The notes: generated by a model from the sequence alone, not told the origin. DNA of 32,463 nucleotides from Escherichia coli (GCF_003334385.1 NZ_QOWN01000051.1); one strand, 5' to 3'; shown: positions 22,404-28,952, numbered from the stretch's first letter. Numbers and translations: made by a program.

Positions 22404-22571
22404 TCAATCATGTATTTTTACAGCAAGACAACCACGAACAAATTCAGGATTAAAATGTTTTACCGACTCCCCAACATAACCCAAATCAAGCGAACTAATT
22501 TGTGCCATTTCTTTATCTGTCAGTGAGAAATCGATTTTTGATGGGCATCTGCAATACTCTGAAGCAGACTA
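22404..22571 (-). pseudogene. C-terminal remnant of an aldo-keto-reductase-like gene (ykgQ-like pseudogene)
   Basis: Hand translation of the minus strand gives ...KIDFSLTDKEMAQISSLDLGYVGESVKHFNPEFVRGCLAVKIHD*, resembling AKR C-termini; an in-frame stop sits immediately upstream and another frame carries a further fragment (...VCFVVPENREV...), so the gene is disrupted. Confidence 0.4.
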
Positions 22572-22834: not shown

Positions 22835-23686
22835 ATGATCAGGCAGAATATTCTACAGCAGCTCCTGGAGTGGATTGAGTGCAATCTTGAGCACCCTATT
22901 TCAATCGAAGATATCGCACAGAAATCTGGCTACAGCAGACGCAACATCCAGCTTCTGTTCCGAAATTTCATGCATGTGCCTTTGGGAGAATACATTCGCA
23001 AACGAAGGCTTTGTCGTGCCGCCATTCTTGTCCGGCTCACCGCGAAATCTATGCTTGATATTGCACTCTCTTTGCATTTTGATTCACAGCAGTCATTCAG
23101 CCGCGAATTTAAAAAGTTATTCGGCTGCTCTCCCCGTGAATACCGCCACCGTGATTATTGGGATCTCGCAAATATCTTCCCTTCTTTTTTAATACGTCAA
23201 CAGCAAAAGACGGAGTGTAGATTAATCAACTTTCCTGAGACACCTATTTTTGGCAACTCATTTAAATATGACATTGAAGTGTCGAATAAATCACCGGATG
23301 AAGAAGTCAAACTACGACGTCATCATTTAGCCAGATGTATGAAGAATTTTAAGACGGATATCTATTTCGTTTCCACGTTTGAACCGTCAACAAAATCGGT
23401 CGATTTGCTCACGGTTGAAACTTTTGCTGGTACGGTATGTGAATATGCTGACATGCCAAAAGAGTGGACAACGACCCGAGGACTTTATGCCTCTTTCCGT
23501 TATGAAGGAAACTGGGAAAATTATCCTGACTGGGTGCGTAACATCTATCTGATAGAGTTACCTGCCAGGGGGTTAGCCAGAGTGAACGGCAGCGATATTG
23601 AGCGCTTTTATTACAATGAAGATTTCGTAGAAAAGGATGGCAATGATGTTGTTTGCGAAATTTTTATTCCCGTTCGTCCGGTTTAG
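22835..23686 (+). CDS. ykgA: AraC-family regulator with N-terminal HTH and C-terminal GyrI-like effector domain, apparently full length (283 aa)
   Basis: AraC-type HTH near the N-terminus (ISIEDIAQKSGYSRRNIQLLFRNF...FSREFKKLFGCSPREYR). Start chosen at MIRQNILQQLLEW. Confidence 0.8.
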   Translation: MIRQNILQQLLEWIECNLEHPISIEDIAQKSGYSRRNIQLLFRNFMHVPLGEYIRKRRLCRAAILVRLTAKSMLDIALSLHFDSQQSFSREFKKLFGCSPREYRHRDYWDLANIFPSFLIRQQQKTECRLINFPETPIFGNSFKYDIEVSNKSPDEEVKLRRHHLARCMKNFKTDIYFVSTFEPSTKSVDLLTVETFAGTVCEYADMPKEWTTTRGLYASFRYEGNWENYPDWVRNIYLIELPARGLARVNGSDIERFYYNEDFVEKDGNDVVCEIFIPVRPV

Positions 23687-23714
23687 TTGGTCACTATCTC
23701 TTATTGAGTTTTAT

Positions 23715-23750
23715 CCTTGCCTGATACTATTTAATCAGTATCAGGCAAGG
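23715..23750. terminator. Perfect 14-bp inverted repeat (CCTTGCCTGATACT / AGTATCAGGCAAGG, 8-nt loop) between convergent ykgA and eaeH
   Basis: Directly visible; no strong T-tract on either side, so terminator function is an inference. Confidence 0.45.
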
Positions 23751-23825
23751 TATTCAGTGAATAATGGCGTTGAATATTTCAACACCATTATTCTTTATTA
23801 GATCGTAACTTTCATACTATTCAAA

Positions 23826-26800
23826 TTATGGCATCTCCTCCTCGCCATTTTCAGTCTCTGCAGCAACGGCGTTAATTGTCACCTTCACAGGCGTCATTTC
23901 GTACCCGCCATACGTCAGTGCGTTGAATGTGAACGTATAGACACCTGGCTTGCTGGTACTAAATGTACGCGTGATTTTCCCACCTGAGAAATGGTCAGCC
24001 TTCGACGGCAGGAATTGATAATCCTTCTCCGTCACTCCTTCCGGAGCCTCAATGTCGACCCACATACTTCCTCCTACGGGATTGACTCCCGCCATCAGGG
24101 TAACCGTCATTGTTGCAGTAGTCTTCCCGTCCGCCACCAGAGAATCTACACGTTCTGGAGATGCGGCGAGCACCGCGTTTTTATCATCCGCGACGAATTT
24201 AGATTCAGCAGTTTTCGTCGATACCTGACCGTTGGCCTGTTCCACTTTCGCCGTGAGTGTATATGTCGCTGCGATAGTGGTAGAGCCGGTGAAAACAGCC
24301 TGTCCTTGCTCATTAGTTTTCGCCGTCCCTTTAGGATCCAGAACTAAATTTTCCGAGCTGGCAGTCAGCGTCACGTCGCTATCCTTCAACAGGTTGTTAT
24401 TGGCATCAGTCACCGTAACTTTATACGTCTGTTTGGTTTTGCCATCCGCCACTGCACGGTTGCCAATCACCTCAATACTGGAGATGGTCGCCGTAGTCTT
24501 ATCGGCCACAAACGTTACAGACTGCGCATTCGAAGGCTGGTCATTTCCTGCCGACGCCGTGATCTCATACGTTCCGGCAGTCACGGAGACCACTTTCAGT
24601 TCCGCTTTACCCTCCTTGTCGGCGTTCACCATGATATTACCGTCTGCAAGCGGTTTGACGCCCCGAGGCAGATTAAAGACGACCACAGCGCCAGGCAGAA
24701 GGTTGCCGTATTGATCCTTAACCGTTGCCGTCAGCGTAAAGGCATCATTGTCGTTTGCCACTTTTGGCGTGCTGCCATCAACCTCCAGGGTCGCCTGACC
24801 GGTACTGAAATCCGCCTTGAATTTCACCGTAACCGTCTTCTGAGCATTATTCACTGAGGCCGTGATGCTGTGTTCCCCCGCAACCGTTGACATAAGCTCA
24901 ATGTCCACTTTCCCTGCCGCATTGGTTGTTACTGTATTCCCCGTCTTGCTGGTCACACCCTGCGGTAAAGTCAGCGTAACTTCTTGCCCCTGCAACGGGT
25001 TACCATAGCTGTCCACGACGGTCAGGGTTATCTGGTTAGCAGACTGTCCATTAGCCAGTTGGTTATTAACCTTCACTGTCATATCACGAATCTCAGCCTT
25101 AGATGCGTCACCTGCAACGTTCAGCACCAGTGGCTGAGCAACGGCATTTTGGCCGTTCACTCGCGGCATCACAGACAACTGACCCGCGGCAGATCCCAGC
25201 GTTAAGGTCGCCACGTAGACCCCATTACCTTTCTCTGTCCAGTTTCCTGCTGAAGGACGCTCACTCCCCGTGCTGGCGGCACCGCTAAACACTGGTGCAT
25301 CTGGCTTCAGCCCGGTGACCGGGTTCCCGTACGCATCCTTCACGGTGAAGGTGAGTTCCGTCGTCATTTTGACGGTCGGAGCCTTATTGTCCGCAACAAG
25401 CGTAGAGTTCGCTGATGACATCTCTCCGGCGATGACCGTCAACTGCGCGGCTTCGGTGGCTGCTGGCTGGCCGTTGAAGAGCGGCATGACACGAAGCTCG
25501 CCCGTCTTTCCGCCTGTAGTTAACGTAGCAACATAGGAACAGTCACCTTTTTCGGTCCAACTGGAAACGGTCGCCCCTTCAGAGGCGGTCCCCGTCAAAC
25601 TTGCCGACAACGAAAGACCACTGATAGTGTTGCCATGTGCATCTTTTGCAATAAGCGTCACGGTTGTGCTTTCGCCGGCTTTTACGTGATCTTCTGCGAC
25701 AGAGACTTTCGACTGGTTTGAAGATAACGCATCAGCCACCACGGTTACTTTTGCCGCATTTGCTGCCGCATCCTGTCCATTTAGCTTCGGCATAACTTCT
25801 AATTCACCCGCCGTAGAGCCGAGAGTAATCTGCGCAGTCCACGTCCCATCACCATTATTTGTCCAGCCAGATGCCGTAGAACCTACAGCAGCGGCACCCG
25901 CTAATGACGGCGCTTCCGGCGTGAGGCTGGTCACAGGGTTGTCATAGGCATCTTTTGCCGTCCAGATTGCCGTAACTGTACCGCCAACCACCGGTTTATC
26001 AGGATTCAGGGTGATGGACGAATGTGCTGCATCAAGCGGACCGGCAACAAACTTCAGCGTTTGTTGTAATGTGCCCAGCTGATACTGCTCGCTGAAAGCA
26101 CGCACAACAACGTTTCCGGCACGGGTCGAAGAAACCGTGGCGCTGTAAACGCCTGGTTTTATTTCCGAAATGGCACCAACGGTTACACCATTAGTGTCTT
26201 GCGGAACAAATCGCAAGCGGCTGGCTTCTCCCGTCACCGGATTACCCTCGGAGTCCACCGCAGTCAACGTCAACGTATAGGCTTGCTGACCATCAGCAAC
26301 CACATCACCTGACGGCTCGTTAGCGCTCAGGGTGGAGTTTGCCACATCCATCATCGTGGCCCGCAGTTCTGCAGTGACGGTTTTGCTCATGCCATCAACG
26401 CTAACAGTAATCGTTGCCTCACCTGACTGCGTTCCGGTAGTAAAGACAGACTGATACACCCCTGCTTCAGTTTCGGTGAACTCACCCAGTGTTGGCTTTG
26501 CCTGTGATTTAGTGGCCTTCAGGGAACGAGTCACAATATTTCCAGCCGGTTTGAAGGCTAGTTCAGTCTTGATCTGATCTTTCATGCCCGTGACTGGCTG
26601 CCCCTCGGCGTCGCGCAGAGACAGCACCAGCGGTCTTTGCTCATTACCGTTAGCAAGCATTTGAATACGGCTCTGACCGTCAAGCGTTAACGCCGTGCGA
26701 TCGGCGCTCATACCTGCTCCGGTAATGACCACCTCTGTCTGCACGCGTTTTGAGGCATTGCCTTTGTTATCGTAGGCAACCGCAGAAATCGCATAATAAT

Positions 26801-28082
26801 TGTCTTTGCCTGGACGATAAGCCGGGAGCGTTACTTGCCACTGACTACCCTGACCGGTAATTTTGCCACCCTCAGCCAGTAATGACGGCGCTTCCCACTG
26901 CACATTTTTCAGTCCGTGAGTTGCTTTGCTGACCACAAGCCCCAGGGAAAGTGTCTGACCACCCTTACCTTCAATACGTTCAGGCAGAGCAATACGGATC
27001 ACTTCAGATTTGCGGTACTCAAGAACGATGTTGTTATTACGCTCAACCAGGTCATAGCGGCTGCCTGCCAGTACCCGACGCTCGCGAATGCTGTCTGTAT
27101 CGAGTTGTTTCGCCAGAGGTTCGCCAATCCGATAATTAACTTCCAGGCCAAAGCGAGTGTCATTCTCACCACTCTTGCCCTGCTTATGCCCGGCGCTCAG
27201 TGTCAGAAGAGGCACTGGCGTATAGGTCACCTCGGCAGAAATAGCATGCGGGTCTTTCTGGCGCTTATCTTTACCAAACAGCCCGACTTCATCGCCATAA
27301 TACTGTTCATACATCAGGCTTGCGCCAAGCTGCGGCCAGGCGGGTAAATAGCCCTCAGCACGAATATCCCAGCCATTCGCCGGGCGTTCCTGATAATCCT
27401 CAATATCCGGCGATTTTTTCCAGCCAGAAGCCCGAATATAACCATTGGCGCTCAGTTTCAGATAATCGCGCCAGTATTCCGCACCAACACCAATGCGGGT
27501 ATGACTACGGGATAAATCATGATCGATAAAAGTATTCACCCCCGCCATCCAGTCATTTCCTGAAAAATGACGCCAGCCAAAACCAATATTTGACTGAGTA
27601 CGATCGTCTGTACGATGTATTGCCCCCTGAGTGAACAACATATTTGTCGGCGTATCATAAATCGGATAAAGCATTTCCAGCGAAGAATCCTTCAGCGAGA
27701 AATCTTTATCGACATTCAGTTTGACGCGCGCAGTACCATATTTCCCGAGCCACTCCTGTATTTCCTGGTTAGCTTTAGCTGTGGCCATTCCGGTAATAAA
27801 GTTACGTGTCGCATCGCTATCTGGCTGACTGCTTAAAAATGTCCCGGCATTTGCGGCAAACGACGCGACATTTTTCTCCACGTTATTATCAGCAGTTACC
27901 GTAGTATTTCCCATGCTCAACCGTGGCTGAACCGCATGCTGCGCACGTGCCGCCATTACTGGGGTAAAGGTGACAGCGAGTGGAAAAAGAACCTGAACAG
28001 AGATATTTGCCCACGCCACGCAGCGGGCCAGAACTGAATAACGAAATCGTGATTGTTTATGACCTGTTTTATAATGTGACAT
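23826..28082 (-). CDS. eaeH: Intimin/invasin-family inverse autotransporter adhesin (FdeC/EaeH type), full length, 1418 aa
   Basis: N-terminal signal-like segment, then a beta-barrel-sized region, then a long tail of tandem Ig-like modules with recurring WTEKGNGVYVATLTLGSAAGQLSVMPRVNGQ-type motifs and T/V/S-rich beta-strand composition. Uninterrupted here. Confidence 0.9.
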   Translation of the reverse strand: MSHYKTGHKQSRFRYSVLARCVAWANISVQVLFPLAVTFTPVMAARAQHAVQPRLSMGNTTVTADNNVEKNVASFAANAGTFLSSQPDSDATRNFITGMATAKANQEIQEWLGKYGTARVKLNVDKDFSLKDSSLEMLYPIYDTPTNMLFTQGAIHRTDDRTQSNIGFGWRHFSGNDWMAGVNTFIDHDLSRSHTRIGVGAEYWRDYLKLSANGYIRASGWKKSPDIEDYQERPANGWDIRAEGYLPAWPQLGASLMYEQYYGDEVGLFGKDKRQKDPHAISAEVTYTPVPLLTLSAGHKQGKSGENDTRFGLEVNYRIGEPLAKQLDTDSIRERRVLAGSRYDLVERNNNIVLEYRKSEVIRIALPERIEGKGGQTLSLGLVVSKATHGLKNVQWEAPSLLAEGGKITGQGSQWQVTLPAYRPGKDNYYAISAVAYDNKGNASKRVQTEVVITGAGMSADRTALTLDGQSRIQMLANGNEQRPLVLSLRDAEGQPVTGMKDQIKTELAFKPAGNIVTRSLKATKSQAKPTLGEFTETEAGVYQSVFTTGTQSGEATITVSVDGMSKTVTAELRATMMDVANSTLSANEPSGDVVADGQQAYTLTLTAVDSEGNPVTGEASRLRFVPQDTNGVTVGAISEIKPGVYSATVSSTRAGNVVVRAFSEQYQLGTLQQTLKFVAGPLDAAHSSITLNPDKPVVGGTVTAIWTAKDAYDNPVTSLTPEAPSLAGAAAVGSTASGWTNNGDGTWTAQITLGSTAGELEVMPKLNGQDAAANAAKVTVVADALSSNQSKVSVAEDHVKAGESTTVTLIAKDAHGNTISGLSLSASLTGTASEGATVSSWTEKGDCSYVATLTTGGKTGELRVMPLFNGQPAATEAAQLTVIAGEMSSANSTLVADNKAPTVKMTTELTFTVKDAYGNPVTGLKPDAPVFSGAASTGSERPSAGNWTEKGNGVYVATLTLGSAAGQLSVMPRVNGQNAVAQPLVLNVAGDASKAEIRDMTVKVNNQLANGQSANQITLTVVDSYGNPLQGQEVTLTLPQGVTSKTGNTVTTNAAGKVDIELMSTVAGEHSITASVNNAQKTVTVKFKADFSTGQATLEVDGSTPKVANDNDAFTLTATVKDQYGNLLPGAVVVFNLPRGVKPLADGNIMVNADKEGKAELKVVSVTAGTYEITASAGNDQPSNAQSVTFVADKTTATISSIEVIGNRAVADGKTKQTYKVTVTDANNNLLKDSDVTLTASSENLVLDPKGTAKTNEQGQAVFTGSTTIAATYTLTAKVEQANGQVSTKTAESKFVADDKNAVLAASPERVDSLVADGKTTATMTVTLMAGVNPVGGSMWVDIEAPEGVTEKDYQFLPSKADHFSGGKITRTFSTSKPGVYTFTFNALTYGGYEMTPVKVTINAVAAETENGEEEMP

Positions 28083-28952
28083 TGAGATAATTTCCTGATG
28101 AACGAATTAACGAACATAGGCAGACACAAATAATGGCGTCTGCTTGTCAGAAAAACCGGGGATTTCCCGATTTCCTTTTCCGCAGAAAAGGAAATACCTT
28201 TATGTAAGAAAGTGCACCGCCACCTAATATATCCAGTGCCTATAGCCACTCATCAGGTGGTTGGGCGCGGGATTATATTTTTATTTATGGGGGAAAATTT
28301 AGCTTTTTGTGCAAGTCATTAAATAGATACCTAAGTTATATTTCTTACTCTGCGGACAGTGAATAATTCACTATTCAGAGTGAATAACAATGACCTGCCT
28401 TTAATTAAAACTATTGGAAATACGTCGAAATAGGTATATATGCCAGGATAAACCAATATATTTTTTATGGATATTCATTTTCCTTCATCGGACTGTAAAT
28501 TGCGGAGATATCGAACTTGCACTACCCATCGCAACACTCAAACAGATTTATGAATTTCGTTCATAACCCCTGACAAATTCTGCCGTCTAATCGAGCTTTT
28601 CCCTTTACGTTATGCTTCTCATGAACGATAACACAACTTGTTCATGAATTAACCATTCCGGATAAACTATGGGATCAAATTCAGGCATCGAAAGGAACTG
28701 GCTGGTTTCCGTTAATGGATTAAATATCTATTATTCTCCCGAGAGTAAAACTATCAAATCAATGAGTAACCGATACAGCCTCACAAATTCTTTCAGATAA
28801 TTAACCCGTCACTGCGGCACGTTCTCTCATAAGGCGTGCCTGCAGTGTAATCCAGTATGTATCCGGCATAGTTGACGGTTTAATAGAACTCAATTCCTCT
28901 CCCAGGTCACCAACAACGATATCTTGTATAACACCCCAGGAGATACGACATT

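Follow-up and report, generated by a model that had tools for sequence, protein, structure and literature searches.

Sequence analysis of an intact fdeC (eaeH) gene from Escherichia coli, encoding an inverse autotransporter adhesin with ten diverged Ig-like modules

Results

An intact copy of fdeC

Here we describe the gene at positions 23826 to 28082 of a 32,463-nucleotide (nt) stretch of Escherichia coli DNA (GCF_003334385.1, NZ_QOWN01000051.1), referred to in full as the window. This gene is almost certainly an intact chromosomal copy of fdeC, also called eaeH, and its product would be an inverse autotransporter adhesin (type Ve) with a rod of ten old, diverged immunoglobulin (Ig)-like modules whose length is fixed in E. 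coli. The gene is already known and well studied; E. coli normally has it intact, with K-12 as the exception.

23826-28082, minus strand: fdeC (eaeH) coding sequence, 1418 amino acids (aa) plus stop (open reading frame list; 100% nt match to annotated fdeC; exact protein named FdeC)

FdeC has been described as a 1416-aa adhesin that occurs in 92-100% of isolates (the figure varies with pathotype) at more than 91% protein identity, that mediates adhesion to epithelial cells and collagen, and that acts as a protective antigen (PMC3324786). The same work found it to be 95% identical to EaeH of enterotoxigenic E. coli (ETEC) H10407 and a truncated pseudogene in K-12 (PMC3324786). FdeC carries ten Big domains, is assembled with the help of the translocation and assembly module (TAM), as shown for the CFT073 protein, and is the prototype of the largest subgroup of inverse autotransporters; it is unexpressed in standard culture and induced upon contact with host cells (PMC4943183). 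Sequence variants of FdeC have been catalogued in thousands of genomes (PMC11143625).

The open reading frame (ORF) is single and unbroken, running on the minus strand from an ATG at 28082 to a stop at 23826, in agreement with the uninterrupted 1418-aa frame proposed, with no strand given, in the initial annotation of this DNA. In the other frames overlapping fdeC, the ORF list contains no ORF longer than 160 aa. The GC content is 0.50-0.55 along the gene and drops to 0.39-0.42 upstream (composition profile). In a megablast search of 5426 complete E. coli genomes, FORC 064, W5-6 and others matched all 4257 nt of the gene at 100% identity, and the matching genes are uniformly annotated as 'fdeC: inverse autotransporter adhesin FdeC' (RefSeq protein WP_000020219.1). 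The exact window protein is present in the public protein collection as FdeC, where its 90%-identity cluster numbers 17,949 sequences, and the crystal structure of an FdeC fragment (4E9L) matches aa 595-1008 with an E value of 7.5e-248 (PDB search). The nucleotide match, this structure and the PF11924 barrel described below bear out the identity first proposed, that of an EaeH/FdeC intimin-like adhesin.

Domain organization of FdeC

The protein divides into an N-terminal region, a membrane barrel and a long C-terminal passenger, as follows.

27858-28082, minus strand: N-terminal region, aa 1-75, basic at its start, hydrophobic at about aa 19-45 and continuing as a short periplasmic segment, without LysM (hydropathy scan; Pfam)
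27033-27857, minus strand: inverse autotransporter beta-barrel, aa 76-350 (PF11924; 4E1T, 4E1S)
26664-26969, minus strand: Ig-like domain D1, aa 372-473, barrel-proximal and of D00 type, approximate bounds (6tqd match; domain alignment)
26034-26663, minus strand: Ig-like domains D2 and D3, aa 474-683, approximate bounds (Invasin_D3, E 2.9e-09 and 4.7e-11)
25104-26033, minus strand: Ig-like domains D4, D5 and D6, aa 684-993, which bear three WT-x-x-G-x-G blocks (Invasin_D3 hits; 4E9L covers aa 595-1008)
24177-25103, minus strand: Ig-like domains D7, D8 and D9, aa 994-1302, of Big_1 type (Big_1, E 4.4e-21, 5.4e-16 and 4.8e-15)
23829-24176, minus strand: D10 and acidic tail, aa 1303-1418, an Ig-like beta-sandwich (weak Invasin_D3 hit, E 0.0014; AlphaFold)

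The hydrophobic stretch at about aa 19-45 is a probable Sec signal peptide, judging from its hydropathy, and is compatible with the long type. Codon 11 (28050-28052), which lies in the basic N-terminal region before this stretch, encodes Ser here and in FORC 064, and Pro in all of the 27 homologues fetched in full. The domain search found the expected inverse autotransporter barrel: PF11924 (IAT_beta) matches completely at aa 76-350 (model positions 3-279 of 279, E 1.6e-109), and the barrel structures of invasin (4E1T) and intimin (4E1S) align over aa 113-357 with E values of 5e-82 and 6e-71 (PDB search). Across aa 1-450 Pfam returned IAT_beta alone, with no LysM domain. The protein has both features that define inverse autotransporters of type Ve, namely an IAT_beta barrel and a C-terminal passenger of the Ig superfamily.

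Nine Invasin_D3/Big_1 domains were recognized by Pfam between aa 474 and 1387; together with the D00-like domain D1, where intimin D00 (PDB 6tqd, D00-D0) matches aa 358-474, they make ten Ig-like modules, in line with the nine or ten estimated initially. An AlphaFold model of aa 1197-1418 contains two all-beta sandwiches (predicted local distance difference test score, pLDDT, 84), with the best PDB fold matches being intimin D0-D1, InvD, invasin and InvE, and Pfam found no Intimin_C match in aa 219-1418. Because the model is all-beta and matches these folds, the distal tip is predicted to be Ig-like rather than C-type lectin-like, and to have no lectin domain.

FdeC passes no NCBIfam model at its curated cut-off. 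The intimin model NF033627 reaches 386.5 bits, far below its cut-off of 1400, and matches the barrel region only, and the scores against cut-offs for IatC, Ilp, YrIlm, SinH and YchO/YchP are 643/2400, 407/1125, 394/750, 305/999 and 285/508, respectively, these matches to other inverse autotransporters also covering mostly the barrel only. With every score under its curated cut-off, these five families were rejected for FdeC and not used for naming. Since the NCBIfam scores are sub-threshold, membership is based on near-identity to proteins named FdeC and not on a family hidden Markov model (HMM).

Divergence among the Ig-like modules

The initial annotation had described near-identical repeat blocks in the array, placed at roughly 24150-26300. 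The three peptides that it quoted do exist, at aa 948-978, 842-872 and 740-770, within a narrower true span (25149-25865).

25149-25241, minus strand: quoted block in D6 (sequence search)
25467-25559, minus strand: quoted block in D5 (sequence search)
25773-25865, minus strand: quoted block in D4 (sequence search)

These blocks are far from near-identical, however, sharing pairwise 16-20 of 31 residues and 52-57 of 93 nt, with a longest in-register identical run of 8 nt. Over whole domains, D4, D5 and D6 are pairwise 37-43% identical in protein and 45-51% in DNA, while D7-D9 share 23-37% and the other domain pairs 9-32% of their residues; identity within the array is therefore 9-43% for protein and at most 51% for DNA. 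Tandem Repeats Finder (TRF), run across fdeC with a minimum score of 30, reported nothing, and a seed-and-extend repeat search of the gene recovered only short families, the best of which is 37 nt long with 62-70% identity. Exact direct repeats within fdeC reach at most 16 nt; in shuffled sequences the longest averages 11.4 nt and never exceeds 15 nt. No stretch of identity in the gene is long enough for efficient homologous recombination, and the ten modules are best read as ancient duplicates rather than as a recombination substrate.

Length and allelic variation across E. coli

fdeC was matched in 5083 of the 5426 complete genomes, with at least 80% of the gene in one place in 4586 (about 85%). 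In 35 full-coverage rows of a rank-spread sample, the gene spans 4230-4257 nt, each time in one piece. A second query, the 1411-nt segment from the end of D1 to D6, was chosen such that the loss of one module lowers coverage below 80%. This segment matched in 4653 genomes and was covered to 80% or more in 4585 of them (98.5%); each of the 59 full matches sampled measured exactly 1411 nt, unbroken. The remaining 68 genomes are an upper bound for a shortened D1-D6, as they include paralogue and pseudogene hits. The representatives of the large protein clusters (17,949, 3112 and 3064 members) are likewise 1417-1418 aa long. With gene length judged from search summaries and sampled rows rather than genome by genome, the number of repeats appears essentially invariant in E. 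coli. In the same genome search, 11 of the 5100 matching places for fdeC, and four for the D1-D6 segment, lie on records labelled as plasmid.

These figures bear directly on the recombinational length variation between strains that had been suggested initially. The initial annotation had itself held that an invariant repeat number, with no repeat identity at the DNA level, would speak against it, and by that measure the suggestion fails.

Where alleles do differ, the differences are distal. In the two largest divergent clusters (P0067 and P0080) the barrel and D1-D3 are 97-100% identical to the window protein, and in the third (P0090) D1 identity falls to 91%; in all three, D8, D9 and D10 are 70-82% identical. 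Variation between strains thus appears to consist of point and mosaic allelic divergence, strongest in D8-D10, a distribution that accords with a published conservation map (PMC4943183). Because divergence is concentrated in these domains, antigenic diversity would be allelic and distal. The antigenic variation between strains foreseen at the outset is consequently retained as allelic divergence in D8-D10, and not as an outcome of repeat recombination.

Rare deletion alleles and a 12-domain form

Among 148 sequences scanned for deletions (the 120 best database proteins and 28 cluster members), there were 24 distinct internal deletions that keep the reading frame, 13-306 aa in size, almost all of them known from a single contig or a few. 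They occur as singletons or small clusters. Their junctions have 0-9 nt of microhomology, and most lie on direct repeats of 5-9 nt, for example ATTACCGG, TCAGGTGA and ACGCTGAC. One allele (P0118; 1112 aa, 24 contigs) lacks three whole domains, removed precisely in register at the conserved GNPVTG motif found in D3 and D6; its DNA junction is only a 2-nt crossover within an imperfect match of 13 out of 18. An assembler artefact is unlikely to account for the rare deletions, as NCBI and Logan assemblies of different runs agree and P0118 is found on 24 contigs. Two complete genomes from the sampled rows of partial coverage were considered as repeat contractions and rejected, both genes being RefSeq pseudogenes: HSP425 has a 665-bp deletion that preserves neither frame nor register, and DL21 a deletion of 3019 bp. 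Judging from their junctions, the rare fdeC deletions are illegitimate events of microhomology type and not the result of unequal crossing-over between near-identical repeats.

Five independent deletion alleles have a common left junction at nt 1359-1361 of the gene (window 26722-26724, the D1/D2 boundary), where the sequence reads ...GGTGGTCATT(A) up to the break. They come from different samples, are in-frame, differ in their right ends and have 0-3 nt of microhomology, in contrast to the 5-9 nt direct repeats at the other deletions. Three deletion alleles have a common right junction at nt 2168-2170 (about window 25913-25915). Chi was rejected as the cause of the recurrent deletion end, there being no Chi site within fdeC and three in the window, at 506, 2947 and 11290. 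Taken together with the alleles of other domain numbers described below, these junctions might point to a sequence-specific deletion hot spot at the D1/D2 boundary, with the stalk now and then changed in length by a directed or structure-driven mechanism and the outcome then selected. This strikes us as rather unlikely; were it true, the depth of the O antigen or capsule and immune pressure would be possible selective pressures.

Natural FdeC alleles of roughly seven, nine and 12 domains exist. The 12-domain FdeC-like proteins (1627-1630 aa; P0099, P0106 and P0135-P0146, from E. marmotae, E. ruysiae and cryptic clades) are orthologous over their full length, with the same barrel and domain types and a best local alignment 67-68% identical to the window protein. 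They differ by a 213-aa insertion after aa 884-887 (about window 25422-25431), which adds two domains of D4-D6 type between D5 and D6. Because these extra domains are merely 29-44% identical to their neighbours, they appear to be old. A form with ten domains (1407 aa) is found in E. marmotae as well. Stalk length can therefore change, both through deletions at microhomologies and through old duplications or the replacement of alleles.

The K-12 lesion and other partial copies

In the K-12 derivative NEB10-beta, fdeC ends after nt 876 and is followed by an IS3 transposase gene and then by ykgA, which RefSeq gives as incomplete at the C-terminus.

23490-27206, no strand: interval missing from K-12, with IS3 in its place (alignment to the NEB10-beta locus and annotation)

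The first 876 nt of the K-12 eaeH pseudogene are 99.9% identical to the window, and the flanking genes are the same. Beyond IS3 nothing of fdeC remains, while the window copy is complete. K-12 lacks 3717 bp in all, comprising the last 3381 nt of fdeC, the spacer between this gene and ykgA, and 197 nt at the 3' end of ykgA. The lesion is an IS3-associated deletion and not a simple interruption; the statement in the initial annotation of a K-12 gene interrupted by IS3 was right in that the gene is broken beside this insertion sequence (IS) and missed the deletion, which also took the 3' end of ykgA.

Altogether, 430 complete genomes match fdeC but lack the D1-D6 segment. Because the three sampled rows (NEB10-beta, EC600 and DL21) are all laboratory strains, such strains probably account for a large part of the 430. 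Loss of fdeC, as in K-12 and B-type laboratory strains, occurs by IS-associated or illegitimate deletion.

The surrounding locus

The position of fdeC, between ykgR/ykgM-ykgO on one side and ykgA/rclCBA on the other, is conserved in FORC 064, K-12 NEB10-beta, CFT073 and SCU-104 (annotations). Two features adjoin the gene.

22835-23686, plus strand: ykgA, convergent neighbour, intact gene for a regulator with an AraC-type helix-turn-helix (HTH) and a GyrI-like domain (ORF list; RefSeq of colinear genomes; Pfam on homologous loci)
28083-28633, no strand: AT-rich region 5' of fdeC, presumed to contain the promoter, ending where extraintestinal pathogenic E. coli (ExPEC) carry six extra genes (composition; CFT073 comparison)

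Consensus scans for promoters and terminators around fdeC gave counts not above those in shuffled sequence, and promoter and terminator were left unassigned for this reason.

FdeC of ExPEC IHE3034 and CFT073 (ECOK1_0290; Nesta et al. 2012, PMC3324786) and EaeH of ETEC H10407 are encoded by the same gene at the same locus. The IHE3034/CFT073 protein has the same barrel and ten Big domains (PMC4943183), and CFT073 fdeC is 94.4% identical in DNA. The ExPEC protein has 1416 aa against the 1418 of the window allele, and the protein divergence between the major alleles compared here is concentrated in D8-D10. CFT073 carries a 6.2-kb block between ykgR and fdeC that is absent from the window and encodes a flavin oxidoreductase, an alpha/beta hydrolase, two LysR regulators and two aldo/keto reductases; the window has the reduced form of the locus, as do K-12 and FORC 064. 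The breakpoint of this block falls at window position 28632, next to a 90-nt relic (28634-28723) that RefSeq annotates as an incomplete hypothetical protein. On the other side of the gene, an aldo/keto reductase gene that is intact in CFT073 is reduced to a 129-nt relic at 22404-22532, between ykgA and rclC (interval 22404-22570); this relic is also present in K-12, FORC 064 and SCU-104.

At the left edge of the window, positions 1-215 (the yahH end) hold 2.3 tandem copies of a 93-nt unit of repetitive extragenic palindrome/bacterial interspersed mosaic element (REP/BIME) type, with two Rfam naRNA4 (RF02564) matches above the gathering score.

At the right edge, the window contains part of a mobile element. 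Positions 1-32387 are colinear with FORC 064 without gaps, and no IS is annotated there in FORC 064; the last 76 nt (32388-32463) match neither FORC 064 nor K-12. This tail is multi-copy, with a median of three and up to 22 copies per genome, occurs on plasmids too, and is the terminal inverted-repeat end (ATAAGCGCTAACTTAAGGGTTG...) of an IS4-family element of IS186/IS421 type. SCU-104, which aligns with the window end to end at 99.89% identity, has the identical junction followed by an 'IS4-like element IS421 family transposase', situated between ecpA and ecpB with a GGGTAGCCCCCC target duplication. The insertion sits at a GC-rich target in the ecpA-ecpB spacer and probably splits the ecpRABCDE common-pilus operon. 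The window had been described initially as free of any IS or transposase: it does contain no transposase ORF, but it ends in this IS186/IS421-type terminus.

Discussion

We show that the gene at 23826-28082 has the features of fdeC, including DNA identity to annotated copies over its whole length, a complete inverse autotransporter barrel, and a passenger of ten Ig-like modules. From its N-terminal sequence, FdeC would be exported through Sec, after which aa 76-350 would form a 12-stranded outer-membrane barrel, as homology to the solved intimin and invasin barrels suggests. The C-terminal passenger would then thread through the protein's own barrel, with assistance from the beta-barrel assembly machinery (BAM) and TAM as described in the literature (PMC4943183), to yield a rod of ten Ig-like domains with an Ig-like tip. 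By analogy, this rod may mediate adhesion to epithelial cells and collagen as well as contact between bacteria, functions that have been shown experimentally for orthologues with more than 91% identity (PMC3324786, PMC4943183).

Several observations weigh against this assignment in its full form. FdeC stays below the curated cut-off of every NCBIfam model, the best of them (IatC, Ilp and intimin) falling far short. The window allele carries Ser at residue 11, where all 27 fully fetched homologues have Pro, and its expression and adhesion are predicted from sequence alone. In addition, the rare in-frame deletion alleles mean that the length of FdeC is not absolutely fixed.

An intact gene could nevertheless be cryptic: fdeC might be kept silent, for instance through the action of H-NS on the AT-rich DNA upstream, have no role at the cell surface, and be on its way to being lost, like the copies in K-12 and B-type laboratory strains. 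The upstream GC content of 0.39-0.42 is compatible with such silencing, as is the reported lack of expression in standard culture with induction by host contact (PMC4943183). The locus is also without the six upstream genes and the downstream aldo/keto reductase of ExPEC, and about 430 complete genomes retain only part of the gene. Control of fdeC by H-NS and temperature was reportedly described by Easton et al. in 2014, a study cited in PMC4943183 and PMC11143625. However, conditional expression is not equivalent to absence of function, several independent isolates have the identical open frame of 4257 nt, and the retention of full-length copies by about 85% of the complete genomes, in every phylogroup, argues for purifying selection. 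We therefore consider it unlikely that fdeC is cryptic here.

Far less probable is the idea that near-identical Ig-like units undergo RecA-dependent expansion and contraction, generating variation in stalk length and antigenicity between strains. This idea could draw on the rare in-frame deletion alleles, on the loss of three domains exactly in register in P0118, and on the two extra D4-D6-type domains of the 12-domain form. Yet TRF finds no repeats, the longest exact repeat of 16 nt is near the level of shuffled sequence, and the most similar domains are only 45-51% identical in DNA. The deletion junctions, with 0-9 nt of microhomology and mostly out of register, have the signature of illegitimate deletion, while the extra domains of the 12-domain form, at 29-44% identity to their neighbours, are old. 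Moreover, D1-D6 is full length in 98.5% of the complete genomes that have the segment. Repeat-variable surface proteins are recognized by high DNA identity between units and by frequent changes in copy number, and fdeC displays neither. An adhesin of essentially constant length, built from anciently duplicated modules, accounts better for these observations.

Intimin (Eae) and Yersinia invasin are, like FdeC, inverse autotransporters that use the same mechanism and have a homologous N-terminal barrel and an Ig-like rod. Both have four Ig-like domains, compared with ten in FdeC. FdeC differs from them in lacking LysM and the C-terminal C-type lectin-like domain that binds the receptor, and in scoring below the intimin cut-off. 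That FdeC is itself a true intimin or invasin, binding Tir or beta-1 integrins through a C-terminal lectin-like domain, can be practically dismissed: its Ig-like domains are of the invasin D3 type, but there is no LysM or Intimin_C match, the C-terminus is all-beta and Ig-like, the NCBIfam intimin model gives 386 where 1400 is required, and the gene lies outside the locus of enterocyte effacement (LEE) island, at the conserved ykg locus.

FdeC/EaeH is already in the literature as a broadly conserved adhesin and a candidate for vaccines, and the assignment of this copy has little import beyond annotation. The useful outcome is a negative one, in that the Ig-like array is not a contingency repeat tract. 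The possible deletion hot spot, the 12-domain form and the IS186-type insertion in the ecp operon offer leads for specialists in adhesin evolution, while vaccine and typing work on FdeC need not expect length variants in E. coli proper.

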